Shown in pieces: positions 2,111 through 62,030 of a stretch of DNA of 64,000 nucleotides. Source of the DNA: Eledone cirrhosa (lineage: Eukaryota); the NCBI GenBank assembly GCA_964016885.1, contig OZ024743.1, forward strand, positions 53,134,001-53,198,000, written 5' to 3'. Below the pieces are notes generated by a model. The model ran no database searches, was not told the DNA's origin, and was given only the letters and a program-made list of their open reading frames with translations. Positions within the stretch are counted from its first letter, which is position 1, and every line of letters begins with the position of its first letter. The position numbers and the translations under genes were made by a program.

Positions 2111-2373
2111 TTGGTGTATAAAAATCTGTTAGAAAACTTTAAACTTCCCTTAAAACTGTCAGTTGAAGAAGGAATGAAGCAATGGAATGTCTTATCAGCT
2201 CCCTTCATCTCTGCTACAATCTCTACATATGTTAAATGTCCAAAATCTTCCTTTTTGCTGAATCTAATTTTTGAATATGCCAAACTTTACAACTTTAACT
2301 CCCCACCCACCAAAAAAAGCTGAACGTCCTGTACTACACGAAAACACATTTGCAAGACTTCCTTAACCCTTTA

Positions 2374-4099
2374 ACATTTACATTACTCTATATATACTAT
2401 TGTATTTTCACAGTAAAGGCTTTATCTCACATAATATCTCACATAACATTTACATTACTCTATATATACTATTGTATTTTCACAGTAAAGGCTTTATCTC
2501 ACATAATATCTCACATAACATCTACATTACTCTATATATACTATTGTATTTTCACAGTAAAGGCTTTATCTCACATAATATCTCACATAACATTTACATT
2601 ACTCTATATATACTATTGTATTTTCACAGTAAAGGCTTTACCTCGCATAATATCTCACATAACATTTACATTACTCTATATATACTATTGTATTTTCACA
2701 GTAAAGGCTTTACCTCGCATAATATCTCACATAACATTTACATTACTCTATATATACTATTGTATTTTCACAGTAAAGGCTTTACCTCGCATAATATCTC
2801 ACATAACATTTACATTACTCTATATATACTATTGTATTTTCACAGTAAAGGCTTTATCTCACATAATATCTCACATAACATTTACATTACTCTATATATA
2901 CTATTGTATTTTCACAGTAAAGGCTTTAACTCACATAATATCTCACATAACATTTACATTACTCTATATATACATGGAGGCACATGGCTTAGTGGTTAGA
3001 GCATTGGCCTTGCAATCGAAAGGTTGTGAGTTCAATTTTCAGACCGAGTGATGTGTTGTTTCCTTGAGCAAGACACTTTATTTCACATTGCTCCAGTTTA
3101 CTCAGCTGTAGAAATGAGATGATAGGGACTGGAGTCCTTATCATTCCACTGCAAAGTGGTCGTGGAGGTGCCACGACAAAAAAAGCACCCAGCACTCACT
3201 GTAAATGAGGTTGGTGTTAGGAAGGGCATCCAGCTGTAGAAATCAAGCCAGAATCAGTTCCCGTCCCACCCTTGCAAGCAGGGAAAAGCGGACGTAAAAT
3301 GATGATGATGATGATGATGATGATACTATTGTATTTTCACAGTAAAAGCTTTATCTCACATAATATCTCACATAACATTTACATTACTCTATATATACTA
3401 TTGTATTTTCACAGTAAAGGCTTTACCTCACATAATATCTCACATAACATTTATATTACTCTATATATACTATTGTATTTTCACAGTAAAGGCTTTACCT
3501 CACATAATATCTCACATAACATTTACATTACTCTATATATACTATTGTATTTTCACAGTAAAGGCTTTATCTCACATAATATCTCACATAACATTTACAT
3601 TACTCTATATATACTATTGTATTTTCACAGGAAAGGCTTTACCTCACATAATATCTCACATAACATTTACATTACTCTATATATACTATTGTATTTTCAC
3701 AGGAAAGGCTTTATCTCACATAATATCTCACATAACATTTACATTACTCTATATATACTATTGTATTTTCACACTAAAGGCTTTATCTCACATAATATCT
3801 CACATAACATTTACATTACTCTATATATACTATTGTATTTTCACAGTAAAGGCTTTATCTCACATAATATCTCACATAACATTTACATTACTCTATATAT
3901 ACTATTGTATTTTCACAGTAAAGGCTTTATCTCACATAATATCTCACATAACATTTACATTACTCTATATATACTATTGTATTTTCACAGTAAAGGCTTT
4001 ACCTCACATAATATCTCACATAACATTTACATTACTCTATATATATACTATTGTATTTTCACAGTAAAGGCTTTACCTCACATAATATCTCACATAACA
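2374..4099 (+). repeat. 72-bp tandem array (~19 units, interrupted by a SINE at 2972-3323)
   Basis: Unit ACATTTACATTACTCTATATATACTATTGTATTTTCACAGTAAAGGCTTTA(T/C)CTCACATAATATCTCACATA; 24-aa periodicity in the ORF track. Confidence 0.95.
2972..3323 (+). mobile_element. tRNA-derived SINE family A (CORE-like centre, RTE-derived 3' tail)
   Basis: A box TGGCTTAGTGG, B box GAGTTCAAT, CCTTGAGCAAGACACTT core and (ATG)n tail. Confidence 0.85.
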
Positions 4100-4311
4100 T
4101 CTCGTATACGAGAGACGTGTGTTGACGTGTGTGAACAAGCTCGGCTACCGAGTCGGATTTACTTACTCAAAAAGTGAGTTTTGATTAATTTTTTTATACT
4201 GTAATATACGTTAACCCCTTGCCTTGGTCGTCAAACTTTGAGTTTATTTATTTTCGCCCCTTTTTGGGGCGAATTTTCCAGTTAAAAATTTATTACGGCA
4301 AACTAATAGAA

Positions 4312-6054
4312 ATGGACGGAATTTTCACATCTCATCCTAACGTGAAAGCCACGCCCCCTAAGAAAGGTGATACAGAGAAGCTAGAAGCACAAGGCTCTAA
4401 GTCTTCCCTCCTGACTTCTGCAAAAGAAACATGGAACACGGAATTAAAAGAAAAATTTGAAAAAATGGGTGAAAACCCAGAAAGTCACATAAACGCAGAC
4501 AAAAACAACAACGACAATAACAGCAATAGTCACAACACCAACCAAGGAAAAAATAACGATAACACCAAACAAAGCGAACCCACTACTGGTACCTCCTTTG
4601 CACAGGCGGTCCGGAAAACACAAACCTGCAAGCAACTGGACATTACAACTCTGAGAGAAAAGATGAAGGAAGCGAAACAGTATGTAACTTTCAAAGAAGG
4701 AGGAGACTTCACAATCACCTCCCCACAAGAAATCAAAAGAGACACGACGCTAAGAACGATATCTTTCAGAACAATTTCCAACATAACAAGGAAACCAACT
4801 CAATTATCCCAAAAAGAGATTGAGCTGGTCCTAAAAAATGTGTGGAGTGATATATCGTTCATACAAAAAGGGCCACTCTATGGGAATATAACGGTCCTAA
4901 TGAAGGATCAATTGACGGCCAGGAAATACTCTGTGGCACCAATTGTTTCCAAGCTACATACATTTTTCCCCACATATTTAGGGAAAAGAACGCAGAAGAT
5001 AAGGGTCTCCGGAATCCGGCCAAATGCATGCATTTCCTGGGTACTAACAGGGTTTTTAGAAGACGAGGACGGAATCCTCTCAGTAGGAGAAGTCACCACA
5101 GACGTTTTCGGCGGTTTGAGCGTGGAGGTTCTGGTCCAAATGAGACCAGAACGAATCGCTAGAATACCACAGAGGGTGTCCCTCGATGGAGAAACATTTA
5201 TATATATTTCAGCCGAGGGTAGGAGGCCCATATGTTACTACTGTTCAAGCAGGGGTCATCTAAGGGCTGCTTGTCCTCAATTGACAAAAAAAAAGGCTCT
5301 TTTGCCTACACCCCACACACCACCACCGCCACCACCACCACCACCACCACCTCCACCACCACCACCACAACAACAACAAAAACAACAGGGAAAAATAACA
5401 CAAGACACGGCCCCACCCAAAACAACTCCCAAAACACACACAAATACAACAAAACCCCAAAATACACCACTACCCGACAGCACGGACGAGGACCCAGCGG
5501 AAACGGCACCTAGTGACGAAGAGGGGGAACCCTTCCAACCTGTAAAAAGGAAAAAAAGAAAGCACCACTCGAACATAAACGAAACAAACACACAACCACC
5601 AACAAAAACAAAACAAACAGAACAAACAAAATCCGCCCCACCCCAAAACATAACACATACAACAAAACGTAAGCACACACAAGAACAACAAACAAACACA
5701 ACACAAATAAAACAGTATACATACATTAACACAAATAACAAAGAACTAGTAAAAACAATACACAAAGACCCTTTGGTGGAAACTGAAGGGCAATTCTTTG
5801 CAAGCGCGGCCAACAAACCGCATTTAAAAATGATAAGACTCCCAATGGACACCTATGCAAAACTAAGAGAGAACTTTCCTGAGGACGTGGGGAAAACATG
5901 TACTCGACCCTATAACCGCGTCCTCTTGAAACGTTTCCCCACCCACACCTCACCAAACACCCCCACTCCACCACAGAACAACACCCCACCAAACAACCCC
6001 TCCAATACGCCCATGGATATTGTGCAACCTGCTCCTCAGGAGCCGAACAGGTAG
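4312..6054 (+). CDS. Tx1 ORF1p (gag-like, CCHC zinc knuckle)
   Basis: First ATG at 4312; CYYCSSRGHLRAAC (CX2CX4HX4C); Pro/Thr/Gln-rich C-terminal half with basic patch KRKKRK. Confidence 0.88.
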   Translation: MDGIFTSHPNVKATPPKKGDTEKLEAQGSKSSLLTSAKETWNTELKEKFEKMGENPESHINADKNNNDNNSNSHNTNQGKNNDNTKQSEPTTGTSFAQAVRKTQTCKQLDITTLREKMKEAKQYVTFKEGGDFTITSPQEIKRDTTLRTISFRTISNITRKPTQLSQKEIELVLKNVWSDISFIQKGPLYGNITVLMKDQLTARKYSVAPIVSKLHTFFPTYLGKRTQKIRVSGIRPNACISWVLTGFLEDEDGILSVGEVTTDVFGGLSVEVLVQMRPERIARIPQRVSLDGETFIYISAEGRRPICYYCSSRGHLRAACPQLTKKKALLPTPHTPPPPPPPPPPPPPPPPQQQQKQQGKITQDTAPPKTTPKTHTNTTKPQNTPLPDSTDEDPAETAPSDEEGEPFQPVKRKKRKHHSNINETNTQPPTKTKQTEQTKSAPPQNITHTTKRKHTQEQQTNTTQIKQYTYINTNNKELVKTIHKDPLVETEGQFFASAANKPHLKMIRLPMDTYAKLRENFPEDVGKTCTRPYNRVLLKRFPTHTSPNTPTPPQNNTPPNNPSNTPMDIVQPAPQEPNR

Positions 6055-6075
6055 GTCCTTCCTCTTTTAACCAAC

Positions 6076-9000
6076 ATGGCTGATATAAGAGTTGGGTGTC
6101 TGAATGTACGTGGCCTGGGACTGTCTTGGAAACAAGGCAAACTTTTAAACGATCTCAGGTCGCATAGAATGGATGTAATGGCTATTTGCGAGTCCAGGAT
6201 CAGCAGCGAGCACCAACTGGCGCCCCTCTTCGACGACTTTGAGATCTTCGCATCTCTCTGTCAACCGGGGGGTGGGGGTGGAGTTGTCGTTCTGCTGCGA
6301 AAACACCTGGGCCTCGCCATACAGAAGGTGCACCTGGACCCGGAGGGTCGACTGGTGGTTTTAGACGTCGGCAGTAGTGAAAGTGGAGCCCTTAGACTAA
6401 TAGCTGTGTATGCCCCTTTTTGGGCAGCGCGGCCGGAATACTTCCAACGTCTGGAAACTTTTCTGGGAACGTCCCGCTCCTTGCTTTTAGTGGGGGACTG
6501 GAATGGTATCCTGGATGCACGTTGGGACTATGTAGGGGCATGTGCCAATAGAGGGGGGTGTAAAAGCCTCAAAAGGTTAATCGGCCGATTTGACCTGGCC
6601 GATAGATATCGACTAGATTTTCCGACTGTACCACTATGGACGTGGACCAATCGCAGTGGAACATCTAGGTCGTACCTAGATAGGGTCCTAGTTAGAGAGA
6701 ACGATAGGGACACATTTAGCTGTCCAAAAATGTTCATGGTTGACTATTCGGATCACAAGTTAGTGACCTGCATAGCCAACCTTGATAGAACCCATAGACA
6801 GGGACCCGGTTACTGGAAGCTGAACTTGTCCTTACCGAGAAGCAAAGCTTACAGTAAACGGATTAGCACGTTAGTTAAGCAGAGTTTGACAGGGGCAATT
6901 GTCAACAACAGGTGGTGGAGCTCTCTTAAGAGAGCAATTAGAATAGAATCGATAGGTTTTAGTCAGGAATTAGCAAGGGATAGGAACAAGACGGAAAGGG
7001 AATTAGTAGATAGAATAGAAGAGGCGATTAGGAGTGGCAATGTAGCCGGCGTGCTGGCATCAAGAATGGCCTTAGACCAGTTCTTTGAGGTGAAGCATGA
7101 AGGCTGCGTTGTCAGGAGTAAAATACGTGCTCTGGGTAATGAGGGAGCCAAAGCTGTGAGCTGGGCCCGAGTGACAGAGGCAAAAAGTGGGAACAAGTCC
7201 ACGATTCGGTCTTTGAAGGACCAGGATGGGCGTGTGATCCTTGAACCTGGGCAGATGTGTGCGGCCTTTCAGCGGCACTTTGCACGACTGTTCGAGAGGG
7301 GCGGCGCGCCGGGTGAGACTATGGATTTCAATCCATACCTCGACGGTCTGCCGCGCCTCTCGGACGCGGAGGCGAAGTCCTGCGAAAGGACGATTTCAGC
7401 TGCTGAGATAGGGGCGGCGCTGAGCCAATGCGGCAAACGCAAATCCCCGGGTCTCGATGGTCTACCATACGAGATATATGTAGCGATGCCGGACTTGTTC
7501 TCCGATATCCTCGAAGCGGTCTACTGCAACTGGCAGCAGAACGGGAGAATTCCCAGTTCTGTGACCAAGGGCGTAGTTACGCTGGTGAGGAAGGATGAGA
7601 ACAAGGGGGATGACATAAGTAACTTCAGGCCCATAACTCTGCTAAATACAGAGTTAAAGATTTTGGCCAAGGTGTTAGCGAAGAGGTTGGCGCTTGTCGT
7701 TGGAAACCTGGTGGGAGAAGCGCAGACATGCGCAATCCCGTCCAGGTCCATTCACGACAATCTCCACCTTATGCGATACATCATAGAGAGGGTAGGGAAT
7801 GAACCCGGCTTTGGTGGGGCCCTGATCAACTTGGATCAATCTAAAGCTTTCGATAGGGTTGACCATCGTTACCTGGATGCGGTGCTCGCGGCGGCAGGCT
7901 TCGGACCCGTTTTCAGGGGTTGGATTGCTGCGATGCACAGCAGCAACGTCTGCTCAAGGGTCAAGGTGAACGGCCACCTCTCGGAGCCGTTCCAAATCAT
8001 GCGATCCATCCGACAGGGATGCCCTCTCTCCTCCCTACTGTATGTGCTGGCTCTTGAGCCACTACTGCGGAAGTTGGAGCGGTTGCAGGGCATCCCTTTG
8101 GAACCGGGATTGCAGAAAGCGGCGTCGGCCTACGCCGATGACGTGACAGTAATGGTGTCGAAAACCTCGCAAATCGGTGAGATCGGCACCTTACTGGAGG
8201 AATATGAAAGGTTTACAGGAGCCAAGCTGAACCGGGACAAGTCCGTCGGTTTGCAACTCGGAACATGGAGAGGCAAACCGATGCCCTCCAACGACGTCGT
8301 CGGACGCTGGACGGAGGGCCCGGTGAAGCTGCTTGGGGTCTGGTTCGGACCAGACCTCCAGGTGGAGAAAAACTGGAACGAGGTAACGGCCAGGGTGTTT
8401 GCACTCACCCAGAAGTGGGCCCAGTGCAAACTATCCCTGAAAGGTCGAGCGGAGGTGGCGAATACTTATATAGCATCCGTCATCTACTACCGCTTGACCG
8501 TCGTGCCTTGCCCAGTGAAAAGACTCGCCAAAATGGAGTGCGCGCTGTTCCAATTTCTTTGGAACAAGCGGACCCCTTTGGTGAGGAGATCCATCTGCTG
8601 TCAACACCCTTCGAAAGGAGGGCTGGGGATGCCGTGGCTACAGATGCGTAAACACGCATTAAGGCTACGGCACCTCCAGGTATTCCTCACCGGTCGACCG
8701 GTGTGGGCCCCGTTTGTGAGGCGAGCCTTTCCCAGACTCGTCTCGCTCACCGAGCTGCAATCCTGGGTCAAGCAAAGACCGAGAAAAGTGGGCGACTGGC
8801 ACATTGAATGTGCCCAGGCGCTCACGGCCCTCTGGAAAGCGGACCCGGCAATCAGTGGAGACTCCACCTCGACATTCTATAGAGGGTTGGTACGCAGCAG
8901 GTGCGACGATGCTCTCGGAGAAGCTCTAGGCATGGAGGAAGATGAACTGGCCAGTCTGTTCGGTAGGACGTTTGGCCCTGGACCGATGGACAACTTCCAA

Positions 9001-9513
9001 AAGTCCCTGGCTTGGCAGTGCTACCGAGGGGCTCTACCCGTTCGAGACAAGCTCCACAGGCATGGGAGCCTGGGTAGAGATCCTTTGAATAAGATCTGTC
9101 CGAGATGCGTGCATGATGACGAAACCGTTGCGCACGCATTCGTACACTGCCCAGGCATTGCTGACCTGTGGGGCTATGTGGAACGACTACTGTCGAGGGT
9201 GGGACCAATCCGGTTGACCACCGAGTCCATTGTCACGATCAAACCGCCTCCCCCTTTCAAAAACGAAGGAGAGGCGGTTTTTCTCTGTGTGGTAGCCATG
9301 GCTAAAGAAGTTGTATGGTGGACGAGGCTGAAAGGGCTGAGGTCAGACACCTTTCTCTCCGGCCAACAACTGGTCCCTTTTTTCAAATACCATTTTAAAA
9401 GAAGGATCAGAATGGAGAGAGAGGTGCTCTACCCCAGCAAGTTTTATGAAAGGTGGGTGAAAGTAGGGAGAATGGCCAGAGTGAATGGGTCTTCTCTCTA
9501 TATCAGCCTGTAG
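6076..9513 (+). CDS. Tx1 ORF2p: APE endonuclease + reverse transcriptase + C-terminal Cys/His zinc-binding motif
   Basis: LNVRGL, GDWN, SYLDRV and SDH (APE); KSPGLDG, FRPITLLN, LDQSKAFDRV, IRQGCPLS and YADD (RT); CPRC...HAFVHC. 1145 aa, uninterrupted. Confidence 0.95.
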   Translation: MADIRVGCLNVRGLGLSWKQGKLLNDLRSHRMDVMAICESRISSEHQLAPLFDDFEIFASLCQPGGGGGVVVLLRKHLGLAIQKVHLDPEGRLVVLDVGSSESGALRLIAVYAPFWAARPEYFQRLETFLGTSRSLLLVGDWNGILDARWDYVGACANRGGCKSLKRLIGRFDLADRYRLDFPTVPLWTWTNRSGTSRSYLDRVLVRENDRDTFSCPKMFMVDYSDHKLVTCIANLDRTHRQGPGYWKLNLSLPRSKAYSKRISTLVKQSLTGAIVNNRWWSSLKRAIRIESIGFSQELARDRNKTERELVDRIEEAIRSGNVAGVLASRMALDQFFEVKHEGCVVRSKIRALGNEGAKAVSWARVTEAKSGNKSTIRSLKDQDGRVILEPGQMCAAFQRHFARLFERGGAPGETMDFNPYLDGLPRLSDAEAKSCERTISAAEIGAALSQCGKRKSPGLDGLPYEIYVAMPDLFSDILEAVYCNWQQNGRIPSSVTKGVVTLVRKDENKGDDISNFRPITLLNTELKILAKVLAKRLALVVGNLVGEAQTCAIPSRSIHDNLHLMRYIIERVGNEPGFGGALINLDQSKAFDRVDHRYLDAVLAAAGFGPVFRGWIAAMHSSNVCSRVKVNGHLSEPFQIMRSIRQGCPLSSLLYVLALEPLLRKLERLQGIPLEPGLQKAASAYADDVTVMVSKTSQIGEIGTLLEEYERFTGAKLNRDKSVGLQLGTWRGKPMPSNDVVGRWTEGPVKLLGVWFGPDLQVEKNWNEVTARVFALTQKWAQCKLSLKGRAEVANTYIASVIYYRLTVVPCPVKRLAKMECALFQFLWNKRTPLVRRSICCQHPSKGGLGMPWLQMRKHALRLRHLQVFLTGRPVWAPFVRRAFPRLVSLTELQSWVKQRPRKVGDWHIECAQALTALWKADPAISGDSTSTFYRGLVRSRCDDALGEALGMEEDELASLFGRTFGPGPMDNFQKSLAWQCYRGALPVRDKLHRHGSLGRDPLNKICPRCVHDDETVAHAFVHCPGIADLWGYVERLLSRVGPIRLTTESIVTIKPPPPFKNEGEAVFLCVVAMAKEVVWWTRLKGLRSDTFLSGQQLVPFFKYHFKRRIRMEREVLYPSKFYERWVKVGRMARVNGSSLYISL

Positions 9514-9750
9514 GTGAAAGAAGAGGAAAAAGCGGAGACGAGGGAAGCACCTACTCTTTGTGCTCCTGAGGAGAAGGGTTACACATTTTTTCCGGGGTGT
9601 GTGCGACCCATGTTAATGCCCCCTCCCTATTGAGGACTTCGTTTGTTGTTGTTATTTCATTGTTATATTTTTGTACTCGTTAATTATATGTAAACTTCCC
9701 CCCTTGTATCTGTCCCTACCTTTTGTGCCCTAGTGGCAAATAAAGAAACC

Positions 9751-10100
9751 ACTCTATATATACTATTGTATTTTCACAGTAAAGGCTTTATCTCACATAA
9801 TATCTCACATAACATTTACATTACTCTATATATACTATTGTATTTTCACAGTAAAGGCTTTACCTCACATAATATCTCACATAACATTTACATTACTCTA
9901 TATATACTATTGTATTTTCACAGTAAAGGCTTTATCTCACATAATATCTTACATAACATTTACATTACTCTATATATACTATTGTATTTTCACAGTAAAG
10001 GCTTTATCTCACATAATATCTCACATAACATTTACATTACTCTATATATACTATTGTATTTTCACAGTAAAGGCTTTATCTTACATAATTATCTCACATA
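9751..10100 (+). repeat. 72-bp tandem array, ~5 units, 3' of the Tx1 element
   Basis: Same unit; the last unit reverts to the monomer form CATAATTATCTCACATAATATCGAATC. Confidence 0.95.
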
Positions 10101-11843
10101 ATATCGAATCTATAAGATTTTCATATTAGTTATTTTGAGAACAATACCTTACCATCAGTATGAGCAGCCAGTTACAGCTGGTTTGAAAAGAAAGAGGTGA
10201 GAGAATTCTGGCCGCATATGGCCGGTTTAAATGCTAAAGGGTTAAAAAGAACAAAATAACATTAATTATTACTTCACATAAAAAAGTATAGTCCTTACTA
10301 TAGTACTACAAACTTTCACATTTATCAATCTACTAATTAATACAGTGTGTCCACCAAAAATATACACACTTTTTAAATGACAATAAATGCATTGTTTATT
10401 GAAACAAAACTAATGGTTAAATATGAGTACATCTTTTTGGGACACCCTGTTTACATTTGAATCAAGAAACCACAGCTTAAAACAGCACAATGATCAAATC
10501 CCATTATATATAGTTTTTACTATAATATATAATGGTCGGTGGGTTGGCAATACTGGTAGAGGGTCAGACGCCATACTTTGCAGCAAAGAGTTACGGCCCT
10601 TTATAGTCTGAGTTCAAATCCTGCTGAGGTTAACTTTGCCTTTCATCCTTACAGGTCGATAAAATAAAGTACCAGTAATGCACTGGGATAATTGCTGGCC
10701 TTGTGCTAAAAGTAGAAACAATTATATATTATAGTCTTTACTCTAATACAGCAAATTTTCACAACAATCTCTCCACTAGTACAAATACTAAAAACATTTG
10801 AATTAACAAACTATTTTCTTCTAAATCTTTCTAGGATGTTAACTAAATGATACAACTAGAGTCTAGTCTAGCAGGTTGCTGAAAATACTTGTGCTCTACC
10901 ATAATTATGCCTGATTAATAAAGGTGCTGAACAATCAATGTTATAGCAGTGCCAGTCATATACTGGGGTCTGTTTAATTGACTACATACCCCCTTCCTCA
11001 AATTTATGATTTCATCTAGATGTTATGTTGAATAACGAAACATTTATGGAACCATTCTCATTTCTTCCCAGCCTTCTCTGTTGCTCCACATTCTCCACCC
11101 ATGTCTTGCTCCCATAAATAATGGCACTTCTCACATATTTAGCTTCTATCTTTCCCTTCCATTCTTTCCATCCTTCTCTGCTGCTCCATGTTCACCATAT
11201 ATTGCTCTCATAAATCATGGTACTTCATCATACACCTTTCCCTTCAGTTTCAGCAATACTCACCTCCTCATAAGCACTGGATCAGAGAAGAGAAACTGAG
11301 GGATGGAGTGGGTGGAGGTAACAGTTTTGAGGGGGTGGATATTAGGGTATTAGAAAAGAAGTATCTATCTGTTAAATCTATAGTTAAAACACTTTGTACA
11401 ATACTTAAGAGCTAAACAACCATTTATAATACTAATCAATAGCACCAGTCACAACAACAACAACAACAATAACATAACATTCCTCCTCACCAAAAAATTA
11501 GATAAAGAAAATCTGACAACTGTAAGAATACATTTTAAAATCAAAAAAAAAATCAAAGCTGTTTATACTAAACAACAACACCCCTGCCTCGACAAAAACA
11601 ACTATAACAGAACAAAACAAGTTTTAAAAATATTTTGAACAGAAAAGTAATTTGAATAAAGGCAGAAAATAGTAAAAATGTTATTTCCTGAACTAGTTTA
11701 GTGATATTATCTCGGTTAATGATTTCCCTGGGGGTATCAAGTGGAACATATTAATATTCTAAAAATGAAATGTAGCAGTCATCATCATCATTGTCTTCAT
11801 CACCATCATCATTATCATCATCATCATCATCATCAACATCATC

Positions 11844-29419: not shown

Positions 29420-31060
29420 TTTCCCATGATTCCTTTCTTTAAAAAAATGTAGAATAAAGAATATAATCTGTTGACCACCTGGTTATTGTTTATGATTTGT
29501 TATCTACACTTAGGTACTTTACATGAGTAAAAGTATGATAGGCGAATAGATAAGATGTTAAAGTTTATCCAAGCTAAGAATTAATTCTTTAGATATCTTT
29601 TGCAGTTATTCATGATCACCTTGTCAACAGCAAGATGGTCTTTGGTTTCATGAGAATTTTTCCTACACCCCTTCTGATTGACAGGTAGCATCTCATTCTA
29701 AATCAAGTGATCATACACTTTTGTAACAAAGATGCCAGTCAACAGCTTCCAAAGCAAATTCCAGCAAGCCAACAGCCTGTAATTTCCAACTAATCAACGT
29801 TTTCTTTTATCCATCATTATCAAAGTTGTCTTTCCTTCAACCATCCAACTTGGAACTTCTTCTACTACTTTATTATTAAGGTGCTTCCCTAGCTTTGAAT
29901 GAATACTTCAATTTCTTTCAACCAGAATCAATCCCATTTGGTCCAGGAGATTTCCAGTATGGCATTTTTCCTAACTTGCTCTTGAATATTTTCATTTGAA
30001 ATTCTTTTCCAGCTCTGTTTTGGTTTATCAGACTAACTTATGTTCAACTTCATTTATCCATCTCACATCTTTGTTGTGAAATAATGTTATGAAATTCCTC
30101 ACAGATTTGACCAAAATTGTGCAGATTCTTCTGCAACTTTTGTCCCATTTTTCTCTAACAGTGATCTAAAGAATATTTTCTGATTTTCAGAGAACAATCT
30201 GTTCTGTTTGTATTGTTTTTGTTTATTTGTATAGCACCTAACTGTTTAGATGTTGCCTTAATTCATTGCTTCATTTTTTTCATCACTACATTCAAAGCTT
30301 TCAACTTTAAGTTAAGGTCATGCATTGTTTCTCTCCTACTTTGGCCCTTTTACAGTTTCCTCTATGCCATTCATCCATTTTACCTAGATCTTTTCTGGGC
30401 TGAGTTATATCACCCTCCAATCCACCAGGGTTCCTTACATTACTTCCTTTCAGTTTCCTTAAATGCTAATTGCTCACCCAACAGAAACCCTACAGTATTA
30501 ATTAACTTACTCTGGTGATAGCATTAGTTTCTATATACATCATTGCATCGTTTACTTTGGCTGTTTCAGTTGCTAAATGACTTTTCTCCATATTCCAAAG
30601 ATTCAGCAACATCTTATTGAATCCAGGGTCATTAACCCTTTAGCTTTTAAACTGGCCATATCCGGCCAGAATTTTCTCATCTATTTCTGTTTAAACTGGC
30701 CATAACCAGCCACTCATACCAATGTTATGGTATTATTCTCAAAATAAATAACATCAAAATCTCATAGATTTGATATTATGTGAGGTAAAGTGTTTACAGT
30801 GAAAATATAATAGTAAATATAGAGTAATGTATATGCTAAAGGGTTAAATAGATCTCTCAATCTTTTGATAATAAATTTTCTTTCTTTCTCTTCTATATTT
30901 TCATTCACATTTTCAATGTTCACAATATCAGACACTTGATTTTCACTCTCTCCACATTTAGTAGTTCATCATTTTTTCCCCCTTCTTAGTATTTTGGTAG
31001 GCTAATTCGTCCTTAGTTGATTCATTTTTATTGTTGTTGTTGTTGTGTGACAGTCTTTAT
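29420..31060 (-). pseudogene. Highly decayed R4/Dong-like non-LTR retrotransposon RT region
   Basis: Reverse-strand remnants LGKMPYWKSPGP (~29940-29975) and YKQNRLFSENQK (~30178-30212); many stops. Confidence 0.5.
30632..30847 (-). mobile_element. Monomeric TTAA MITE (LINE-free)
   Basis: TTAA-CCCTTTAGC...GCTAAAGGG-TTAA; reverse complement of the 34006 copy; inserted in the R4-like remnant. Confidence 0.85.
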
Positions 31061-34005: not shown

Positions 34006-34241
34006 TTAACCCTTTAGCATTTACATTACTCTATATTTGCTATAAAGAAATTATATTTTCTCGGTAAACACTTTACCTCACATAATTATCTCGCATATTA
34101 TTGAATCTATGAGATTTTGATATTATTTATTTTGAGAACAATACCTTAATATCAGTATGAGTGGTCAGTTACGACCAGTTTGACAGAAAGAGGTGAGAGA
34201 ATTCTGGCTGGATATGGCCAGTTTAAATGCTAAAGGGTTAA
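34006..34241 (+). mobile_element. Monomeric TTAA MITE (LINE-free)
   Basis: 14-bp TIR CCCTTTAGCATTTA / TAAATGCTAAAGGG with TTAA on both sides. Confidence 0.9.
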
Positions 34242-34448: not shown

Positions 34449-34842
34449 TTAACCCTTTATCATTTACATTACTCTATATATACTATTATATTTTCTTGGT
34501 AAAGGTTTTACCTCACATAATTATCTCACATAATATCGAATCTATGAGATTTTCATATCATTTATTTTGAGAACAATACCTTAACATAAGTATGAGTGAC
34601 CAGTTACAGCAGGTTTGAACAGAAAGAGGTGAGAGAATTCTGGCCAGATATGGCCGGTTTAAATGCTAAATCTCTCACCTCTTTCTGTTCAAATTGGCCA
34701 TAACTGGCTACTCATACTTATGTTAAGGTATTTTTCTCAAAATAAATATCAAAATCTCGTAGATTTGATATTATTTGAAATAAAGTGTTTACTATGAAAA
34801 TACAATAGTAAATATAGAGTAATATCAATGGTAAAGGGTTAA
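34449..34842. mobile_element. Tail-to-tail fused MITE dimer
   Basis: + copy 34449-34670 joined directly to a - copy 34671-34842; both outer ends are left-type TIRs with TTAA. Confidence 0.8.
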
Positions 34843-50782: not shown

Positions 50783-53700
50783 TTAACTCTTTAGCATTCA
50801 CATTACTCTATATTTACTATTGAATTTTTATAGTAAAGGCTTTACCTCACATAATATCTCACATAACATTTACATTACTCTATATATACTATTGTATTTT
50901 CACAGTAAAGGCTTTACCTCACATAATATCTCACATAACATTTACATTACTCTATATATACTTTTGTATTTTCATGGTAAAGTCTTTACCTCACATAATA
51001 TCTCACATAACATCTCATATACGAGAGACTGTGTTGACGTGTGTGAACAAGCTCGGCTACCGAGTTGGATTTACTTACTCAAAAGTGAGTTTTGATTAAT
51101 TTTTTTATACTGTAATATACGTTAACCCCTTGCCTGGGTCGTCAAACTTTGAGTTTATTTATTTTCGCCCCTTTTTGGGGCGAATTTTCCTTTTAAAAAT
51201 TTATTATGGCAAACTGATAGAAATGGACGGAATTTTCACATCTCATCCTAACGAGAAAGTCACGCCCCCTAAGAAAGGTGATACAGAGAAGCTAGAGGTA
51301 CAAGGCTCTAAGTCTTCCCTCCTCACTTCTGCAAAAGAAACATGGAACACGGAATTAAAAGAAAAATTTGTAAAAATGGGTGAAGACCCAGAAAGTCACA
51401 TAAACGCAAACAAAAACAACAATGACAATAACAGCATGATCAACAACAGCAATAGTCACAACACCAACCAAGGAAAAAATAACGATAACACCAAACAAAG
51501 CGAACCCACTACTGGTGCCTCCTTTGCATAGGCGGTCCGGAAAACACAGACCTGCAAGCAACTGGACATTACAACTCTGAGAGAAAAGATGAAGGAAGCA
51601 AAACAGTATGTAACTTTCAAAGAAGGAGGAGACTTCACAATCACCTCCCCACAAGAAATCAAAAGAGACACGACACTAAGAACGATATCTTTCAGAACAA
51701 TTTCCAACATAACAAGGAAACCAGCTCAATTATCCCAAAAAGAAATTGAGCTGGTCCTAAAAAATGTGTGGAGTGATATATCGTTCATACAAAAAGGGCC
51801 ACTCTATGGGAATATAACGGTGCTAATGAAGGATCAATTGACGGCCAGCAAATACTCAGTGGCGGCAATTGTTTCCAAGCTACACACATTTTTCTAAACA
51901 TATTTGGGGAAAAGAACACAGAAAATAAGAGTCTCCGGAATCCGGCCAAATGCATGCATTTCCTGGGTACTAACAGGATTTTTAGAAGACGAGGACGGAA
52001 TCCTTTCAGTAGGAGAAGTCACCACAGACGTTTTCGGCGGTTTGAGCATGGAGGTTCTGGTCCAAATGAGACCAGAACGAATAGCTAGAATACCACAGAG
52101 GGTGTCCCTCGATGGAGAAACATTTATATACATTTCAGCTGAGGGTAGGAGGCCCATATGTTACTACTGTTCAAGCAGGGGTCATCTAAGGGCTGCCTGT
52201 CCTCAATTGACAAAAAAAAGGCTCTTTTGCCTACACCCCACACACCACCACCGCCACCACCACCACCACCAACACCACTACCACCACCACCAACACCACT
52301 ACCACCACCACCACTACCACCACCACAACAACAACAAAAACAACAACAAAAACAACAAAAACAACACGGAAAAATAACACAAGACAAGGTCCCACCCAAA
52401 ACAACTCCAAAAACACATATAAACACAACAAAACCCCAAAATACACCACTACCCGACAGCACGGACGAGGACCCAGCTGAAACGGCACCTAGTGACGAAG
52501 AGGGGGAACCCTTCCAACCTGTAAAAAGAAAAAAAAGAAAACACCACACGAACATAAACGAAACAAACACACAACCACCAACAAAAACAAAACAAGTAGA
52601 ACAAACAAAATCCACCCCCACCCCAAAACATAACACATACAACAAAACGCAAGCACACACAAGAACAACAAACAAACACAACACAAATAAAACAGTATAC
52701 ATACATTAACACAAATAACAAAGAACTAGTAAAAACAATACACAAAGACCCTTCGGTGGAAACTGAAGGGCAATTCTTTGCAAGCTGCTGAGATAGGGGC
52801 GGCGCTGAGCCAATGCGGCAAACGCAAATCCGGACTTGTTCTCCGATATCCTCGAAGCGGTCTACTGCAACTGGCAGAAGAACGGGAGAATTCCCAGTTC
52901 TGTGACCAAGGGCGTAGTTATGCTGGTGAGGAAGGATGAGAACAAGGGGGATGACATAAGTAACTTCAGGCCCATAACTCTGCTAAATACAGAGTTAAAG
53001 ATTTTGGCCAAGGTGTTAGCGAAGAGGTTGGCGCTTGTTGTCGGAAACCTGGTGGGAGAAGCGCAGACATGCGCAATCCCGTCCAGGTCCATTCACGACA
53101 ATCTCCACCTTATGCAATACATCATAGAGAGGGTAGGGAATGAACCCGGCTTTGGTGGGGCCCTGATCAACTTGGATTAATCTAAAGCTTTCGATAGGGT
53201 TGACCATCGTTACCTGGATGCGGTGCTCGCGGCGGCAGGCTTCGGACCCGTTTTCAGGGGTTGGATTGCTGCGATGCACAGCAGCAACGTCTGCTCAAGG
53301 GTCAAGGTGAACGGCCACCTCTCGGAGCCATTCCAAATCATGCGATCCATCCGACAGGGATGCCCTCTCTCCTCCCTTCTGTATGTGCTGGCTCTTGAGC
53401 CACTACTGCGGAAGTTGGAGCGGTTGCAGGGCATCCCTTCGGAACCGGGATTGCAGAAAGCGGCGTCGGCCTACGCCGATGACGTGACAGTAATGGTGTC
53501 GAAAACCTCGCAAATCAGTGAGATCGGCACCTTACTGGAGGAATATGAAAGGTTTACAGGAGCCAAGCTGAACCGGGACAAGTCCGTCGGTTTGCAACTC
53601 GGAACATGGAGAGGCAAACCGATGCCCTCCAACGACGTGGTCGGACGCTGGACAGAGGGCCCAGTGAAGCTGCTTGGGGTCTGGTTCGGACCAGACCTCC

Positions 53701-55191
53701 AGGTGGAGAAAAACTGGAACGAGGTAATGGCCAGGGTGTTTGCACTCACCCAGAAGTGGGCCCAGTGCAAACTATCCCTGAAAGGTCAAGAGGAGGTGGC
53801 GAACACTTATATAGCATCCGTCATCTACTACCGCTTGACCGTCGTGCCTTGCCCAGTGAAAAGACTCACCAAAATGGAGTGCGCGCTGTTCCAATTTCTT
53901 TGGAACAAGCGGACCCCGTTGGTGAGGAGATCCATCTGCTGTCAACACCCTTCGAAAGGAGGGCTGGGGATGCCGTGGCTACAGATGCGTAAACACGCAT
54001 TAAGGCTACGGCACCTCCAGGTATTCCTCACCGGTCAACCGGTGTGGGCCCCGTTTGTGAGGCAAGCCTTTCCCAGACTCGTCTCGCTCACCAAGTTGCA
54101 ATCCTGGGTCAAGCAAAGACTGAGAAAAGTGGGCGACTGGCACATTGAATGTGCCCAGGCGCTCACGGCCCTCGACATTCTATAGAGGGTTGGTACGCAG
54201 CAGGTGCGACGATGCTCTCGGAGAAACTCTAGGCATGGAGGAAGGTGAACTGGCCAGTCTGTTCGGTAGGACGTTTGGCCCTGGACCGATGGACAACTTC
54301 CAAAAGTCCCTGGCTTGGCAGTGCTACCGAGGGGCTCTACCTGTTCGAGACAAGCTCCACAGGCATGGGAGCCTGGGTAGGGATCCTTTGAATAAGATCT
54401 GTCCGAGATGCGTGCATGACGACGAAACCGTTGCGCACGCATTCGTACACTGCCCAGGCATTGCCATTGTCACGATCAAACCGCCTCCCCTTTTCAAAAA
54501 CGAAGGAGAGGCGGTTTTTCTCTGTGTGATAGCCATGGCTAAAGAAGTTGTATGGTGGACGAGGCTGAAAGGGCTGAGGTCAGACACCTTTCTCTCCGGC
54601 CAACAACTGGTCCCCTTTTTCAAATATCATTTTAAAAGAAGGATCAGAATGGAGAGAGAGGTGCTCTACCCCAGCAAGTTTTATGAAAGGTGGGTGAAAG
54701 TAGGGAGAATGGCCAGAGTGAATGGGTCTTCTCTCTATATCAGCCTGTAGGTGAAAGAAGAGGAAAAAGAGGAGACGAGGGAAGCACCTACTCTTTGTGC
54801 TCCTGAGGAGAAGGGTTGCACATTTTTTCCGGGGTGTGTGCGACCCATGTTAATGCCCCCTCCCTATTGAGGACTTCGTTTGTTGTTATTTCCTTGTTAT
54901 ATTTTTGTACTCATTAATTATATGTAAACTTCCCCCCTTGTATCTGTCCCTACCTTTTGTGCCCTGGTGGCAAATAAAGAAATTACTCTATATATACTAT
55001 TGTATTTTCACGGTGAAGGCTTTACCTTACATAATTATTCACATCGAATCTATGAGATTTTGATGATATTATTATTTACTTTGAAAACAAGACCTTAACA
55101 TCAGTATGAGTGGCTAGTTACGGCCAGTTTGAACAGTGAGAGGTGAGAGAATTCTGGCTGGATATGGCCGGTTTAAATGCTAAAGGGTTAA
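50783..55191 (+). mobile_element. Second composite MITE containing three 72-bp units and Tx1 copy 2
   Basis: TTAA-CTCTTTAGCATTCA at 50783 and TAAATGCTAAAGGG-TTAA ending at 55191. Confidence 0.85.
51013..54981 (+). pseudogene. Tx1 copy 2, 5'-complete but inactivated (stops, frameshifts, APE domain deleted)
   Basis: Highly similar to 4100-9750. TAG at 51529, TAA at 53178; lacks copy-1 5806-7400, 7447-7490, 8833-8870 and 9162-9227. Confidence 0.92.
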
Positions 55192-56336: not shown

Positions 56337-56564
56337 TTAACTCTTTAGCATTTACATTATTTTATATTTACTATTATGTTTTCATAATAAACATTTTATT
56401 TCACATAATTATCTCACATATATCGAATCTATGAGATTTTGATATTATTTATTTTGAGAACAATACCTTAACATCAGTATGAGCGGCCAGTTTCAGCCAG
56501 TTTGAACAGAAAGAGGTGAGAGAATTCTGGCCGGATATGGCCGGTTTAAATGCTAAAGGGTTAA
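56337..56564 (+). mobile_element. Monomeric TTAA MITE (LINE-free)
   Basis: TTAA-CTCTTTAGCATTTA ... TAAATGCTAAAGGG-TTAA. Confidence 0.88.
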
Positions 56565-56683: not shown

Positions 56684-56902
56684 TAGTATTTAAACAGGCC
56701 ATATCCGGCCAGAATTCTATCACCCCTTTCTCTTCAAACCGGTCGTAACTTGCTACTCATACATATATTGAGGTATTGTTCTCAAAATAAATAACATCAG
56801 AATCTCATAGATTCGATATTATGTGAGATATTATGTGGAATAAAGCCTTTATCATAAAAATACAACAGTATTTATAGAGTAATTTGAATGCTAAAAGGTT
56901 AA
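56684..56902 (-). mobile_element. Monomeric TTAA MITE (LINE-free, one end eroded)
   Basis: Reverse-complement match to the family; ends TGCTAAAAGG-TTAA. Confidence 0.8.
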
Positions 56903-56950
56903 TAATCAATTTCTAAATTTTTAAAGATATTTTTGTTTTTGCTTGTTTAG

Positions 56951-57103: not shown

Positions 57104-57989
57104 GTAACTTTCATACTAATTACAACTGTTTATGTAGTCATAGATGAATGGTTAAAAATTTCACTTTGTAATCATGAGGTGGTAGTGGTGGTGGTGGTGG
57201 TAGTAGTGGTGGTGGTAGTGGTAGTGGTGGTGGTGGTGGTAGTGGTAGTGGTGGTGGTGGTAGAGGTGTTTGGTAGTGGTGGTCGTGGTTGTAGTGGTGT
57301 TGGTGGTGGTGGTTGTGGTGTTGGTAGCGGTGGTGGTAGTGGGGGGGGGGGTAGTAGTGGTGGGGGGTGGCGGTGGTGGTAGTGGTGGTGGTAGTATTGG
57401 ATGGTATATGGGGAAAAATAAGTCGGAAACCAGTGACAGCAGCAGCAATATATACATGTGTGTGTGTCGAATAAGAACAGAGTAAAAACACTTGAGAAAG
57501 TTACTACCTATGTTGGCAGTGATGGGGTTCTCTCTTCAGTACATGTGTGAGGAATGCAATGCTCTATGTACATGAAACATGAGCAGCAAAGGCTGAGGAT
57601 ATGGAGAGGCTGGATAGAAATGAAGTTAGCATATTCCAGTGGATATGTAATGTTAGTTAAGTATGAACAATGAAGCATGGATAAGCTGAGAGAGAAAAAA
57701 GCTGGGTATAAGAGGAATCAGATGTTGTGTGAAAGAGTGAAGACTGCATGACCATAGGATTTGAAAAGAGGGTGATCGTTTGGTGAAGAAGTGCCAGGAG
57801 ATGGCAGTTGAAAGAAGCTGCATTAGAGGAAGACTGAGGAAGGCTTGAGTAAAAGTGGTGAGAGCTGATCTCAAAATGTTGAGCTTCACATAGGAGATGA
57901 TGCAGAAATGCTGGAAAGACTTGTTCTGCCCATCCAACATGGTATAACGAATGTAAAATGATGATGATGATGATTTTATATAATACATA

Positions 57990-60900
57990 TGACATGGCAA
58001 AAAGTGCCCTGTCCACACTGTAAAGTGGTTGTGTAGGTGTCACGACAAAAAGCACCCAGTCCACATTGTGAAGTGGTCATGTAGGTGTCACAACAAAAAG
58101 CACCCAGTCCACATTGTGAAGTGGTCATGTAGGTGTCACAACAAAAATCACCCAGTCCACATTGTAAAGTGGTCATGTAGGTGTCACAACAAAAAGCACC
58201 CAGTCCATATTGTAAAGTGGTCATGTAGGTGTCACGACAAAAAGCACCCAGTCCACACTGTAAAGTGGTTGTGTAGGTGTCACGACAAAAAGCACCCAGT
58301 CCACATTGTGAAGTGGTCATGTAGGTGTCACAACAAAAAGCACCCAGTCCCCATTGTGAAGTGGTCTTGTAGGTGTCACAACAAAAAGCACCCAGTCCAC
58401 ATTGTAAAGTGGTCATGTAGGTGTCACAACAAAAAGCACCCAGTCCATATTGTAAAGTGGTCATGTAGGTGTCACGACAAAAAGCACCCAGTCCACACTG
58501 TAAAGTGGTTGTGTAGGTGTCACGACAAAAAGCACCCAGTCCACACTGTAAAGTGGTCATGTAGGTGTCACGACAAAAAGCACCCAGTCCACACTGTAAA
58601 GTGGTTGTGTAGGTGTCACGACAAAAAGCACCCAGTCCACATTGTAAAGTGGTCATGTAGGTGTCACGATAAAAAGCACCCAGTCCACATTGTAAAGTGG
58701 TTGTGTATGTGTCATGACAAAAAACACCCAGTCCACACTGTAAAGTGGTCATGTAGGTGTCACGACAAAAAGCACCCAGTCCACATTGTAAACTGGTCGT
58801 GTAGGTGTCATGACAAAAAGCTCCGAGCCCACATTGTAAAGTGGTCATGTAGGTGTCACGACAAAAAGCACCCAGTCCACATTGTAAAGTGGTTGAGTAT
58901 GTGTCATGACAAAAAGCACACAGTCCACACTGTAAAGTGGTCATGTAGGTGTCACGACAAAAAGCACCCAGTCCACACTGCAAAGTGGTTGTGTAGGTGG
59001 TGTCACGACAAAAAGCACCCAGTCCACATTGTAAAGTGGTCATGTAGGTGTCACGACAAAAAGCACCCAGTCCACATTGTAAAGTGGTCATGTAGGTGTC
59101 ACGACAAAAAGCACCCAGTCCACATTGTAAAGTGGTCGTGTAGGTGTCATGACAAAAAGCACCCAGTCCACATTGTAAAGTGGTCATGTAAGTGTCACGA
59201 CAAAAAGCGCCCAGTCCACACTGTAAAGTGGTCATGTAGGTGTCACGACAAAAAGCACCCAGTCCACATTGTAAAGTGGTCATGTAGGTGTCACGACAAA
59301 AAGCACCCAGTCCACATTGTAAAGTGGTCGTGTAGGTGTCATGACAAAAAGCACCCAGTCCACACTGCAAAGTGGTTGTGTAGGTGTCACGACAAAAAGC
59401 ACCCAGTCCACATTGTAAAGTGGTCGTGTAGGTGTCATGACAAAAAGCACCCAGTCCACATTGTAAAATGGTCATGTAGGTGTCACGACAAAAAGCACCC
59501 AGTCCACATTGTAAAGTGGTTGTGTATGTGTCATGACAAAAAGCACCCAGTCCACACTGTAAAGTGGTCATGTAGGTGTCACGACAAAAAGCACCCAGTC
59601 CACACTGTAAAGTGGTTGTGTAGGTGTCACGACAAAAAGCACCCAGTCCACATTGTAAAGTGGTCATGTAGGTGTCACGACAAAAAGCACCCAGTCTACA
59701 TTGTAAAGTGGTCGTGTAGGTGTCATGACAAAAAGCACCCAGTCCACACTGCAAAGTGGTTGTGTAGGTGTCACGACAAAAAGCACCCAGCCCACACTGT
59801 AAAGTGGTAGTGTTGGTGTCACGACAAAAAGCACCCAGTCCACATTGTAAAGTGGTCGTGTAGGTGTCATGACAAAAAGCACCCAGTCCACATTGTAAAA
59901 TGGTCATGTAGGTGTCACGACAAAAAGCACCCAGTCCACATTGTAAAGTGGTCATGTAGGTGTCACGACAAAAAGCACCCAGTCCACATTGTAAAGTGGT
60001 TGTGTATGTGTCATGACAAAAAACACCCAGTCCACACTGTAAAGTGGTCATGTAGGTGTCACGACAAAAAGCACCCAGTCCACATTGTAAACTGGTCGTG
60101 TAGGTGTCATGACAAAAAGCTCCGAGCCCACATTGTAAAGTGGTCATGTAGGTGTCACGACAAAAAGCACCCAGTCCACATTGTAAAGTGGTTGAGTATG
60201 TGTCATGACAAAAAGCACACAGTCCACACTGTAAAGTGGTCATGTAGGTGTCACGACAAAAAGCACCCAGTCCACACTGCAAAGTGGTTGTGTAGGTGGT
60301 GTCACGACAAAAAGCACCCAGTCCACATTGTAAAGTGGTCATGTAGGTGTCACGACAAAAAGCACCCAGTCTACATTGTAAAGTGGTCGTGTAGGTGTCA
60401 TGACAAAAAGCACCCAGTCCACACTGCAAAGTGGTTGTGTAGCTGTCACGACAAAAAGCACCCAGCCCACACTGTAAAGTGGTAGTGTTGGTGTCACGAC
60501 AAAAAGCACCCAGTCCACACTGTAAAGTGGTCGTTTAGGTGTCACGACAAAAAGCACCCAGTCCACACTGTAAAGTGGTTGTGTACGTGTCACGACAAAA
60601 AGCACCCAGTCCACATTGTAAAGTGGTCATGTAGGTGTCACGACAAAAAGCACCCAGTCCACATTGTAAAGTGGTCATGTAGGTGTCATGACAAAAAGCA
60701 CCCAGTCCACACTGTAAAGTGGTCATGTAGGTGTCACGACAAAAAGCACCCAGTCCACATTGTAAAGTGGTCGTGTAGGTGTCACAACTAAAAGCACCCA
60801 GTCCACATTGTAAAGTGGTCATGTAGGTGTCACGACAAAAAGCACCCAGTCCACATTGTAAAGTGGTCATGTAGGTGTCACGAAAAAAAGCACCCAGTCC

Positions 60901-62030
60901 ACACTGTAAAGTGGTTGTGTAGGTGTCACGCAAAAAGAACCCAGTCCACACTGTAAAGTGGTCATGTAGGTGTCACGACAAAAAGCACCCAGTCCACATT
61001 GTAAAGTGGTCGTGTAGGTGTCATGACAAAAAGCACCCAGTCCACATTGTAAAATGGTCATGTAGGTGTCAGGACAAAAAGCACCCAGTACACATTGTAA
61101 AGTGGTCATGTAAGTGTCACGACAAAAAGCACCCAGTCCACACTGTAAAGTGGTTGTGTAGGTGTCACGACAAAAAGCACCCAGTCCACATTGTAAAGTG
61201 GTCATGTAGGTGTCATGACAAAAAGCACCCAGTCCACATTGTAAAGTGGTCGTGTAGGTGTCACGAAAAAAAGCACCCAGTCCACACTGTAAAGTGGTTG
61301 TGTAGGTGTCACGCAAAAAGCACCCAGTCCACACTGTAAAGTGGTCATGTAGGTGTCACGACAAAAAGCACCCAGTCCACATTGTAAAGTGGTCATGTAG
61401 GTGTCATGACAAAAAGCACCCAGTCCACATTGTAAAATGGTCATGTAGGTGTCACGACAAAAAGCACCCAGTCCACATTGTAAAGTAGTTGTGTAGGTGT
61501 CATGACAAAAAGCACCCAGTCCACACTGTAAAGTGGTTATGTAGGTGTCACGACAAAAAGCACCCAGTCCACACTGTAAAGTGGTCGTGTAGGTGTCATG
61601 ACAAAAAGCACCCAGTCCACACTGTAAAGTGGTCATGTAGGTGTCACGACAAAAAGCAGCCAGTCCACATTGTAAAGTGGTCGTGTAGGTGTCATGACAA
61701 AAAGCACCCAGTCCACATTGTAAAATGGTCATGTAGGTGTCACGACAAAAAGCACCCAGTCCACATCGTAAAGTGGCCATGTAGGTGTCACGACAAAAAG
61801 CACCCAGTCCACATTGTAAAGTGGTCGTGTAGGTGTCATGACAAAAAGCACCCAGTCCACATTGTAAAATGGTCATGTAGGTGTCACGACAAAAAGCACC
61901 CAGTCCACATTGTAAAGTGGTCATGAAGGTGTCACGACAAAAAGCACCCTGTCCACACTGTAATGTGGTCATGTAGGTGTCACAACAAAAAGCACCCAGT
62001 CCACATTGTAAAGTGGTTATGTATGTCGCA
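57990..62030 (+). repeat. 48-bp minisatellite (~84 units) derived from a SINE interior
   Basis: Unit CAAAAAGCACCCAGTCCACATTGTAAAGTGGTCATGTAGGTGTCACGA; runs into an ordinary SINE 3' half at 62030-62226. Confidence 0.95.

Follow-up and report, generated by a model that had tools for sequence, protein, structure and literature searches.

The window analysed here is a stretch of 64,000 nucleotides (nt) from Eledone cirrhosa (GCA_964016885.1, contig OZ024743.1, positions 53,134,001 to 53,198,000 of the forward strand). It carries two copies of a long interspersed nuclear element (LINE), each lying inside a TTAA-bounded element that derives from a piggyBac-type miniature inverted-repeat transposable element (MITE). 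The first copy, 5.65 kb in length with two open reading frames (ORFs) that are intact, occupies positions 4100-9750 within the TTAA-bounded element 2363-10245; the second, at 51013-54984 within 50783-55191, is broken by internal deletions and stop codons. Both copies lie on the same strand and in the same register, at the positions given in an earlier note on this DNA, and share the 5′ junction that it reported, CTCACATAACA joined to TCTCG/A. The note had described the flank as the MITE itself. The flank is indeed MITE-derived, but it consists of tandem 72-bp units grown from the left part of the MITE: 8.4 plus 10.8 units to the left of copy 1, split by a short interspersed nuclear element (SINE), and 4.9 to its right, with three to the left and approximately one to the right of copy 2. 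Each of the six empty MITEs in the window holds a single unit. The features are listed below (UTR, untranslated region; APE, apurinic/apyrimidinic endonuclease).

2363-2384, plus strand: target duplication (TTAA) plus terminal inverted repeat belonging to the piggyBac-type host MITE (the reverse-complemented MITE aligns to the ends of a piggyBac element bearing PF13843)
2372-2973, plus strand: minisatellite of 8.4 tandem 72-bp units, copied from the MITE left part (98% matches)
2974-3322, plus strand: tRNA-derived SINE within one unit (other copies in the window; weak tRNA match at 2985-3042, below the gathering score)
3323-4099, plus strand: 72-bp minisatellite, 10.8 units (tandem-repeat comparison)
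4036-4099, plus strand: last unit, 64 bp, the distal part of which may derive from the LINE RNA leader (junction-unit comparison)
4100-4311, plus strand: LINE 5′ UTR, beginning with a 14-bp palindrome (fold z -2.6 for 4036-4320)
4312-6054, plus strand: ORF1, 580 aa, CCHC zinc knuckle (motif; PF00098 at E 0.007, under the cut-off)
6076-9513, plus strand: ORF2, 1145 aa, open frame with APE endonuclease, reverse transcriptase (YADD) and C-terminal zinc finger (Pfam, residues)
9514-9750, plus strand: LINE 3′ UTR, ending AATAAAG-AAACC without poly(A) (sequence)
9751-10101, plus strand: 72-bp minisatellite, 4.9 units, resuming at ACTCTATATATAC, the target site (tandem-repeat comparison)
10102-10245, plus strand: right part of the MITE, including its terminal inverted repeat and TTAA (MITE alignment)
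50783-55191, plus strand: second MITE, made up of three units, the LINE copy that carries deletions (junction AAATT, 51013-54984) and a further unit (alignment)
34449-34670, plus strand: empty single-unit MITE (MITE alignment)
30632-30847, 34006-34241, 34668-34842, 56337-56564 and 56684-56903: further empty single-unit MITEs (MITE alignment)
63013-63660, plus strand: sister LINE family, 3′ fragment with an (ATC/ATT)n end (sequence comparison)

On sequence grounds, the APE endonuclease, reverse transcriptase and C-terminal zinc finger assign the LINE to the L1 group of non-LTR retrotransposons (LTR, long terminal repeat). ORF2 matched the Pfam domains PF03372, PF00078 and PF13966, sequence comparison showed that the endonuclease catalytic residues are conserved, and among solved structures the best match was human L1 ORF2p (E 3.5e-53), with R2 at E 2e-23. 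ORF1 contains the knuckle pattern CX2CX4HX4C, although its Pfam score lay under the cut-off, and the Pfam search gave no match to RRM or Transposase_22. A type I ORF1 with a CCHC knuckle, and not Transposase_22, is a feature of the Tx1 clade (PMC5203782), the characters of which have been published (PMC3747384, PMC5203782). No named Tx1 reference was returned by the protein, Atlas and metagenome searches: the protein searches yielded unnamed relatives, one at 71% and others at 38-45% identity, names in the Atlas were generic only, and the metagenome scan found 80 loci at 24-42% identity. Both frames were open in 5 of 55 sampled copies, and in six of all those sampled when copy 1 is counted in. 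The LINE starts with a perfect palindrome (4100-4113), and its 5′ UTR has several hairpins (z -2.6), including one at 4265-4285. With regard to expression, contigs of runs X1 and X6 extend from 4071 into the LINE and a contig of run X7 extends to 9780, with 29-30 letters on the unit side, which are too few to count as bridging unit and LINE.

The host has a TTAA duplication and CCC...GGG termini without coding capacity, features of a non-autonomous piggyBac element. When reverse-complemented, the MITE aligned over approximately 200 nt with the left end, and also with the right terminus, of an element at locus L372 that carries a PF13843 transposase; the local score was 77 over approximately 200 nt and at most 41 in 200 shuffles. 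By this alignment the MITE is judged to be piggyBac-derived. It is old (approximately 9% from consensus), mostly single-unit, and 9,249 exact left ends were counted in the genome. The element at L372 belongs to a young piggyBac family (L372, L374, L376 and L379) of 2.6 kb with broken frames and termini near those of the MITE; three compared copies are 98% alike.

Genome-wide, a 29-mer at the LINE 3′ end had 332 exact matches and another near the 5′ end had 275; since the reversed control patterns had none, chance is excluded. These counts set a lower bound of 332 on the number of copies. Every one of the 119 sampled 3′ ends and of the 110 sampled 5′ ends, from loci picked by exact or best matches mostly on C1-C25, with older and more scattered copies under-sampled, lies at one site of the 72-bp unit, CATT^ACTCTATATATAC. 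The strict 3′ junction AATAAAG-AAA(CC/TC/TT/CT)-ACTCTATATATAC was present in 117 of 119 distinct contexts, the remaining two (L130 and L175) having small deletions at the same site, and the strict 5′ junction in 105 of 110, the other five still reading CACATAACA followed by TCTCG. A Tx1 family is considered target-specific when one sequence type accounts for >20% of flanks (PMC4494074); in the present family the values were 119/119 for 3′ ends and 110/110 for 5′ ends. The proposal that this LINE inserts at one site of a piggyBac-type MITE is thus strongly supported, and tabulating the flanks across the genome sample placed every end inside the MITE-derived unit rather than most copies elsewhere. 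Diverged LINEs near arrays (L097, L141 and L170) were considered and set aside; they are not in the unit and end in microsatellites. We also weighed whether insertion could be unspecific, with selection clearing copies elsewhere. Among the exact matches listed, the LINE occurred only in distal parts of C1-C3, as such clearing might leave it. However, a single nucleotide and a single orientation shared by 119/119 ends are beyond what selection can fix, and the sister LINE families described below persist throughout chromosome interiors, which leaves this explanation extremely improbable.

An argument for independent insertions had earlier been made from a difference between the two 3′ junctions. 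It does not stand: the registers are identical (AAAG-AAACC-ACTCT and AAAG-AAATT-ACTCT), and the two differing letters are LINE-inherited. Throughout the family these letters track the LINE tree, with ATT basal, ATC intermediate and ACC in the youngest clade; they are therefore part of the element, passed on with it, and ACC and ATT were rejected as independent junctions. Independence was upheld on other grounds. As the earlier note had suspected, the host MITE ends are more diverged than the LINEs, the window copies being 2.7% apart in the LINE and 12.8% in the MITE right ends. At 30 loci with both parts, LINEs were 2.0% apart and MITE right ends 17.4%, with no correlation between the two (Mantel r -0.12, p 0.79), and in the six LINE pairs less than 0.5% apart the hosts differed by at least 11%. 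LINEs 2% apart in hosts 17% apart, without correlation, indicate that the insertions are independent. An identical pair at C20 (L015/L016), flanks included, was collapsed to one. The closest pair among 54 LINE-bearing MITE right ends was 6.4% apart, and these ends share consensus and polymorphism with 55 single-unit MITEs (1 of 141 columns at p 0.008).

These figures bear directly on the suggestion that the 7.9-kb composite might move as a DNA transposon, and on its stronger form, that one ancestral insertion was spread as a MITE-LINE composite. The junctions are uniform, copies are mostly full-length, both terminal inverted repeats and the TTAA are kept, and there are young piggyBac copies, 98% alike, whose termini are similar, all of which such a spread would accommodate. 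Near-identical MITE ends holding a LINE in different flanks were nevertheless absent among the 54 loci (minimum 6.4%), hosts are 17% apart compared with 2% for LINEs, and independent truncations lie at the same site; composite transposition was rejected on these divergences and is, in our estimate, very improbable.

Truncated copies at the same 3′ site with short target duplications confirm retrotransposition. These included (i) L140, 43 bp of LINE in a single-unit MITE with 2 bp repeated on both sides, (ii) L181, 50 bp of LINE with 6 bp repeated on both sides, at a locus chosen for its absent 5′ match, (iii) L112, with 9 bp repeated on both sides, and (iv) L139, with 13 bp repeated on both sides and an inverted piece; the reading of L135 as a truncated copy is ambiguous. 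Truncation is otherwise rare: when 60 copies were selected by the 3′ end, 56 retained the 5′ end, and the genome-wide exact matches, 275 for the 5′ and 332 for the 3′ pattern, show the same bias towards full length. Within arrays, six LINE copies at C1 4.22-4.26 Mb comprise near-identical neighbours (4-10 differences) mixed with distant ones (21-30), indicating that local duplication and repeated insertion both act in multi-copy arrays. Single MITEs were observed with six (L161-L165) and at least three (L182-L183) tandem LINEs, some of them exactly one 64-bp unit apart.

The unit directly 5′ of the LINE differs from its neighbours. Its last 22 nt were perfect in 48 of 56 loci, compared with 18 of 43 in the adjacent outer unit and 23 of 47 in the first unit on the 3′ side. 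Host-specific variants were present in 27 of 78 loci; by manual count, 15 loci had one at unit position 40 or beyond, and the 5′ unit carried none of them. Host variants at earlier positions were present in the 5′ unit at some loci and absent at others. In a separate count by position, it carried 8/12, 4/9 and 0/10 (the last from two loci). The 3′ unit, on the other hand, was host-type from as early as positions 8-9 (L131, L114, L029 and L095). The unit 5′ of the LINE is a chimera of host and donor, pointing to a target-derived RNA leader like that of R2; the one-sided donor pattern agrees with the R2 model, according to which the RNA carries target sequence that pairs with the site and thereby yields uniform junctions. 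Leader-guided joining of this kind would be expected to leave a uniform 5′ junction with donor-type target sequence upstream, as found here. Uniform junctions, a small target deletion and an occasional duplication are likewise seen in R2, where they are attributed to target sequence carried by the RNA (PMC3774820). R2 differs in its restriction-like nuclease and its ribozyme like that of hepatitis delta virus; Rfam matched no ribozyme here, and the putative leader can reach two units (136 bp).

The longest leaders are suggested by the end of C20, where 98 units of 39-44 bp form an array in which standard 72/64-bp units occur only immediately 5′ of the two LINEs it contains. We infer that a leader of 136 bp (two units) added units there, once or twice. 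In the same region (L381-L383, G000 C20:1-16,000), a second minisatellite, with a 43-bp repeat built from the MITE terminus, extends as far as the end of the contig and contains the two LINEs.

We consider it probable that this is a young L1/Tx1-type LINE inserting at one site in the 72-bp unit of old piggyBac MITEs, mostly where this unit forms tandem arrays, likely by target-primed reverse transcription with an R2-like leader. The endonuclease would nick the unit at its site in a sequence-specific manner, and target-primed reverse transcription would then likely insert the LINE. Transcription would begin in upstream units, giving an RNA leader of approximately 11 nt to two units, which may anneal at variable points; units would thereby be overwritten or added and full-length cDNA favoured. 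The family may descend from sisters that target microsatellites, their (ATCT)n target being similar to the unit start, and local unequal crossing-over would later duplicate some copies inside arrays.

Several observations weigh against parts of this proposal, as does the under-sampling of older copies mentioned above. Unit delivery is supported by a single locus, at C20, and the two copies there are related (23 differences; 7 of them shared versus the window copy). At L109 and L098 the 5′ unit is of a short 60-bp type and only approximately 11 nt match. Variants in the flanking units do not follow the LINE tree (Mantel r approximately 0.01 on both sides), so long leaders are not the rule, and leaders inherited along that tree were rejected. 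Rfam gave no ribozyme match in 2300-4400, a search that divergent ribozymes would escape. At L132, a host-specific duplication of 51 bp could be explained by a host with two units or by a long target duplication: the LINE has a single unit on either side, and the two agree over 51 bp that include four private variants, which may mark a target duplication of unusual length.

A different route would be for the endonuclease to nick the unit and for DNA repair, rather than reverse transcription, to copy LINE and flank from another array in most cases, a homing-like gene conversion. This would account for the near absence of truncation, for variable donor tracts on the 5′ side and for neighbours in multi-copy arrays that differ at only 4-10 positions. 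It sits poorly with tracts that are one-sided, the 3′ unit being host-type from position 8-9, and with truncated copies bearing short duplications and an inversion, the marks of retrotransposition; we regard it as improbable.

A second site-specific element at the same site was considered for L095 and L096. The shared upstream piece of approximately 550 bp resembles an LTR-type terminus and is better explained as transduced flank. The copies (L095:1700-2235 and L096:1332-2045, oriented) are 50 kb apart and their upstream non-LINE sequence is 95% alike; in L096 the LTR-like piece is preceded by units and by the opening 151 nt of the LINE, suggesting 5′ transduction and a template switch.

Two sister families behave differently. 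A sister family approximately 80-86% identical ends in ATCT/TA repeats at 20/20 loci, with 16/20 copies truncated within 1.8 kb, and a 72-77% identical family ends in ATT/ATC repeats at 14/16 loci, the other 2/16 junctions being unread. The sisters are older, their copies being 96-97% (ATCT family) and approximately 90% (ATT/ATC family) alike, an age that may inflate truncation. These families (window 63013-63660; L235-L270), with (ATT/ATC)n and (ATCT)n ends, are spread through chromosome interiors. On the simplest reading, the present LINE would have exchanged a microsatellite target for the start of the unit, ACTCTATATATAC, which resembles it, with precise 5′ joining going along with the change.

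The distribution of the LINE is that of arrays rather than of MITEs. Among the matches listed, the exact LINE 3′ ends on C1 lie at 0-31 or 431-434 Mb (25/25), while MITEs and sister LINEs also occur in the chromosome interior, and this indicates that the LINE tracks the 72-bp arrays, not MITEs. In samples of 30 and 25 MITEs, on which the proportion rests, 22/30 in C1 0-32 Mb and 24/25 in C1 36-58 Mb were single-unit. The genome contains 32,602 exact unit-unit junctions. The idea that an abundant MITE serves as a self-renewing landing pad is not supported in that form: the MITE is old, has a single unit in most cases and is plentiful in regions without the LINE.

Array-consensus units differed between loci by 3.9% at 37 LINE loci and 8.1% at seven LINE-free arrays (some of which were found via the junction pattern), compared with 18.0% for 52 single units, whereas MITE right ends were 14-17% apart in the LINE, array and single-unit classes. 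One CpG-decay haplotype was found at 32/37 LINE loci, 5/7 LINE-free arrays and 5/52 single units. Units that are alike within diverged frames imply that a young unit spread among old, unrelated frames. A possible but rather doubtful agent is the LINE itself, which would build its own landing pads: after its switch from a microsatellite target, the leader would deliver standard 72-bp units to old single-unit or foreign MITEs, the LINE would be lost by recombination between flanking units, and arrays would expand into a genome-wide minisatellite of >32,000 unit junctions within an old DNA transposon family. This role is weakened by LINE-free arrays of locus-specific old units with the same junction and by flank variants that do not follow the LINE tree.

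To the opposite view, that arrays and uniform unit arose without the LINE (through an old two-unit MITE subfamily, with slippage and ectopic conversion in distal parts of chromosomes) and that the LINE only exploits them without contributing to their spread, we give slightly less than an even chance. It bears on the landing-pad part only and is compatible with site-specific insertion of the LINE. The first 13 arrays on C1 include 10 that are LINE-free, several arrays (L160, L185, L196 and L205) combine locus-specific old units and the same junction with absence of the LINE, and, by sequence logic, excision of a LINE between two units cannot alone make a unit-unit junction. Set against this are right ends without a subfamily split (55 single, 11 array and 54 LINE loci), the 3.9% compared with 18% divergence and the 32/37 compared with 5/52 haplotype counts given above, and the standard units at C20, which occur only beside LINEs.

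The units receive other elements too. The SINE at 2974-3322 recurs in the TATAC part of the unit at L006, L059 and L091, and this AT-rich stretch holds further insertions at L117 (twice), L124, L210 and L190; we take the two at L117 and those at L124 and L210 to be Helitron-like and that at L190 to be mariner-like.

The frog element Tx1L, a close parallel, is reported to lie in internal tandem repeats of its host Tx1D as well. Tx1D is a non-autonomous piggyBac family that hosts Tx1L in Xenopus laevis (PMC4494074), and the Tx1L endonuclease nicks its own target almost exclusively (PMC1950540). The analogy drawn earlier with this pair is apt, both being an APE-type LINE at one site of a non-autonomous piggyBac (PMC4494074, PMC1950540, PMC6719617). 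Here, however, the host is an invertebrate, a minisatellite unit that varies in copy number serves as the target, the MITE frames are old, and the uniform 5′ junction has a 4-bp loss in array register where Tx1L has a constant duplication; the endonuclease hairpin loop aligns ungapped to human L1, without the RDGH tip of Tx1L (PMC1950540). In crocodilians, Tx1-Mar and SINEU-3 in Mariner-N4_AMi and Tx1-9_AMi in Harbinger likewise show independent and tandem insertions in an old, abundant DNA transposon, but with a preference of 13-90% and 16-bp duplications, in contrast to 119/119 in a young family with open frames (PMC4494074). The Tx1 families Kibi, in (TC)n, and Koshi, in (TTC)n, resemble the two sisters with (ATCT)n and (ATT)n ends (PMC4494074); unlike them, the present LINE would have moved off microsatellites to a 72-bp transposon-derived unit. 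Mollusc tandem-repeat MITEs (DTC84) share the MITE frame with a variable array; the abstract on them describes no site-specific LINE, and the units here are much younger than the frames (PMC3879986).

Transposon-targeting LINEs are thus already known from frogs and crocodiles, and the present case extends them to an invertebrate. Literature listings, which covered neither Repbase nor most subscription papers, showed no paper on this LINE family or on a leader-guided Tx1 element. A paper on octopus repeats reports 13 recent L1-Tx1 families, and the words 'target' and 'site-specific' are absent from its main text; the family could already be listed in the repeat library of PMC13282606 or in Repbase/Dfam. 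A recent target switch appears to have been caught here, the (ATCT)n sister, 83% identical, being mostly truncated and the single-site family almost always full-length, and the sister pair offers a natural experiment on change of APE endonuclease specificity and on precise 5′ joining. This is relevant to RNA-based gene insertion, a field centred on R2. Should the LINE prove to seed arrays, it would show a way, open to testing, for a retrotransposon to create a dispersed satellite and make it homogeneous.

Elsewhere in the window, a DUF2007 Pfam match within 57976-62140 had no passing stretch and is probably spurious; the sequence at these positions consists of tandem repeats of 48 bp, across which long reading frames stay open (852 aa, minus strand).

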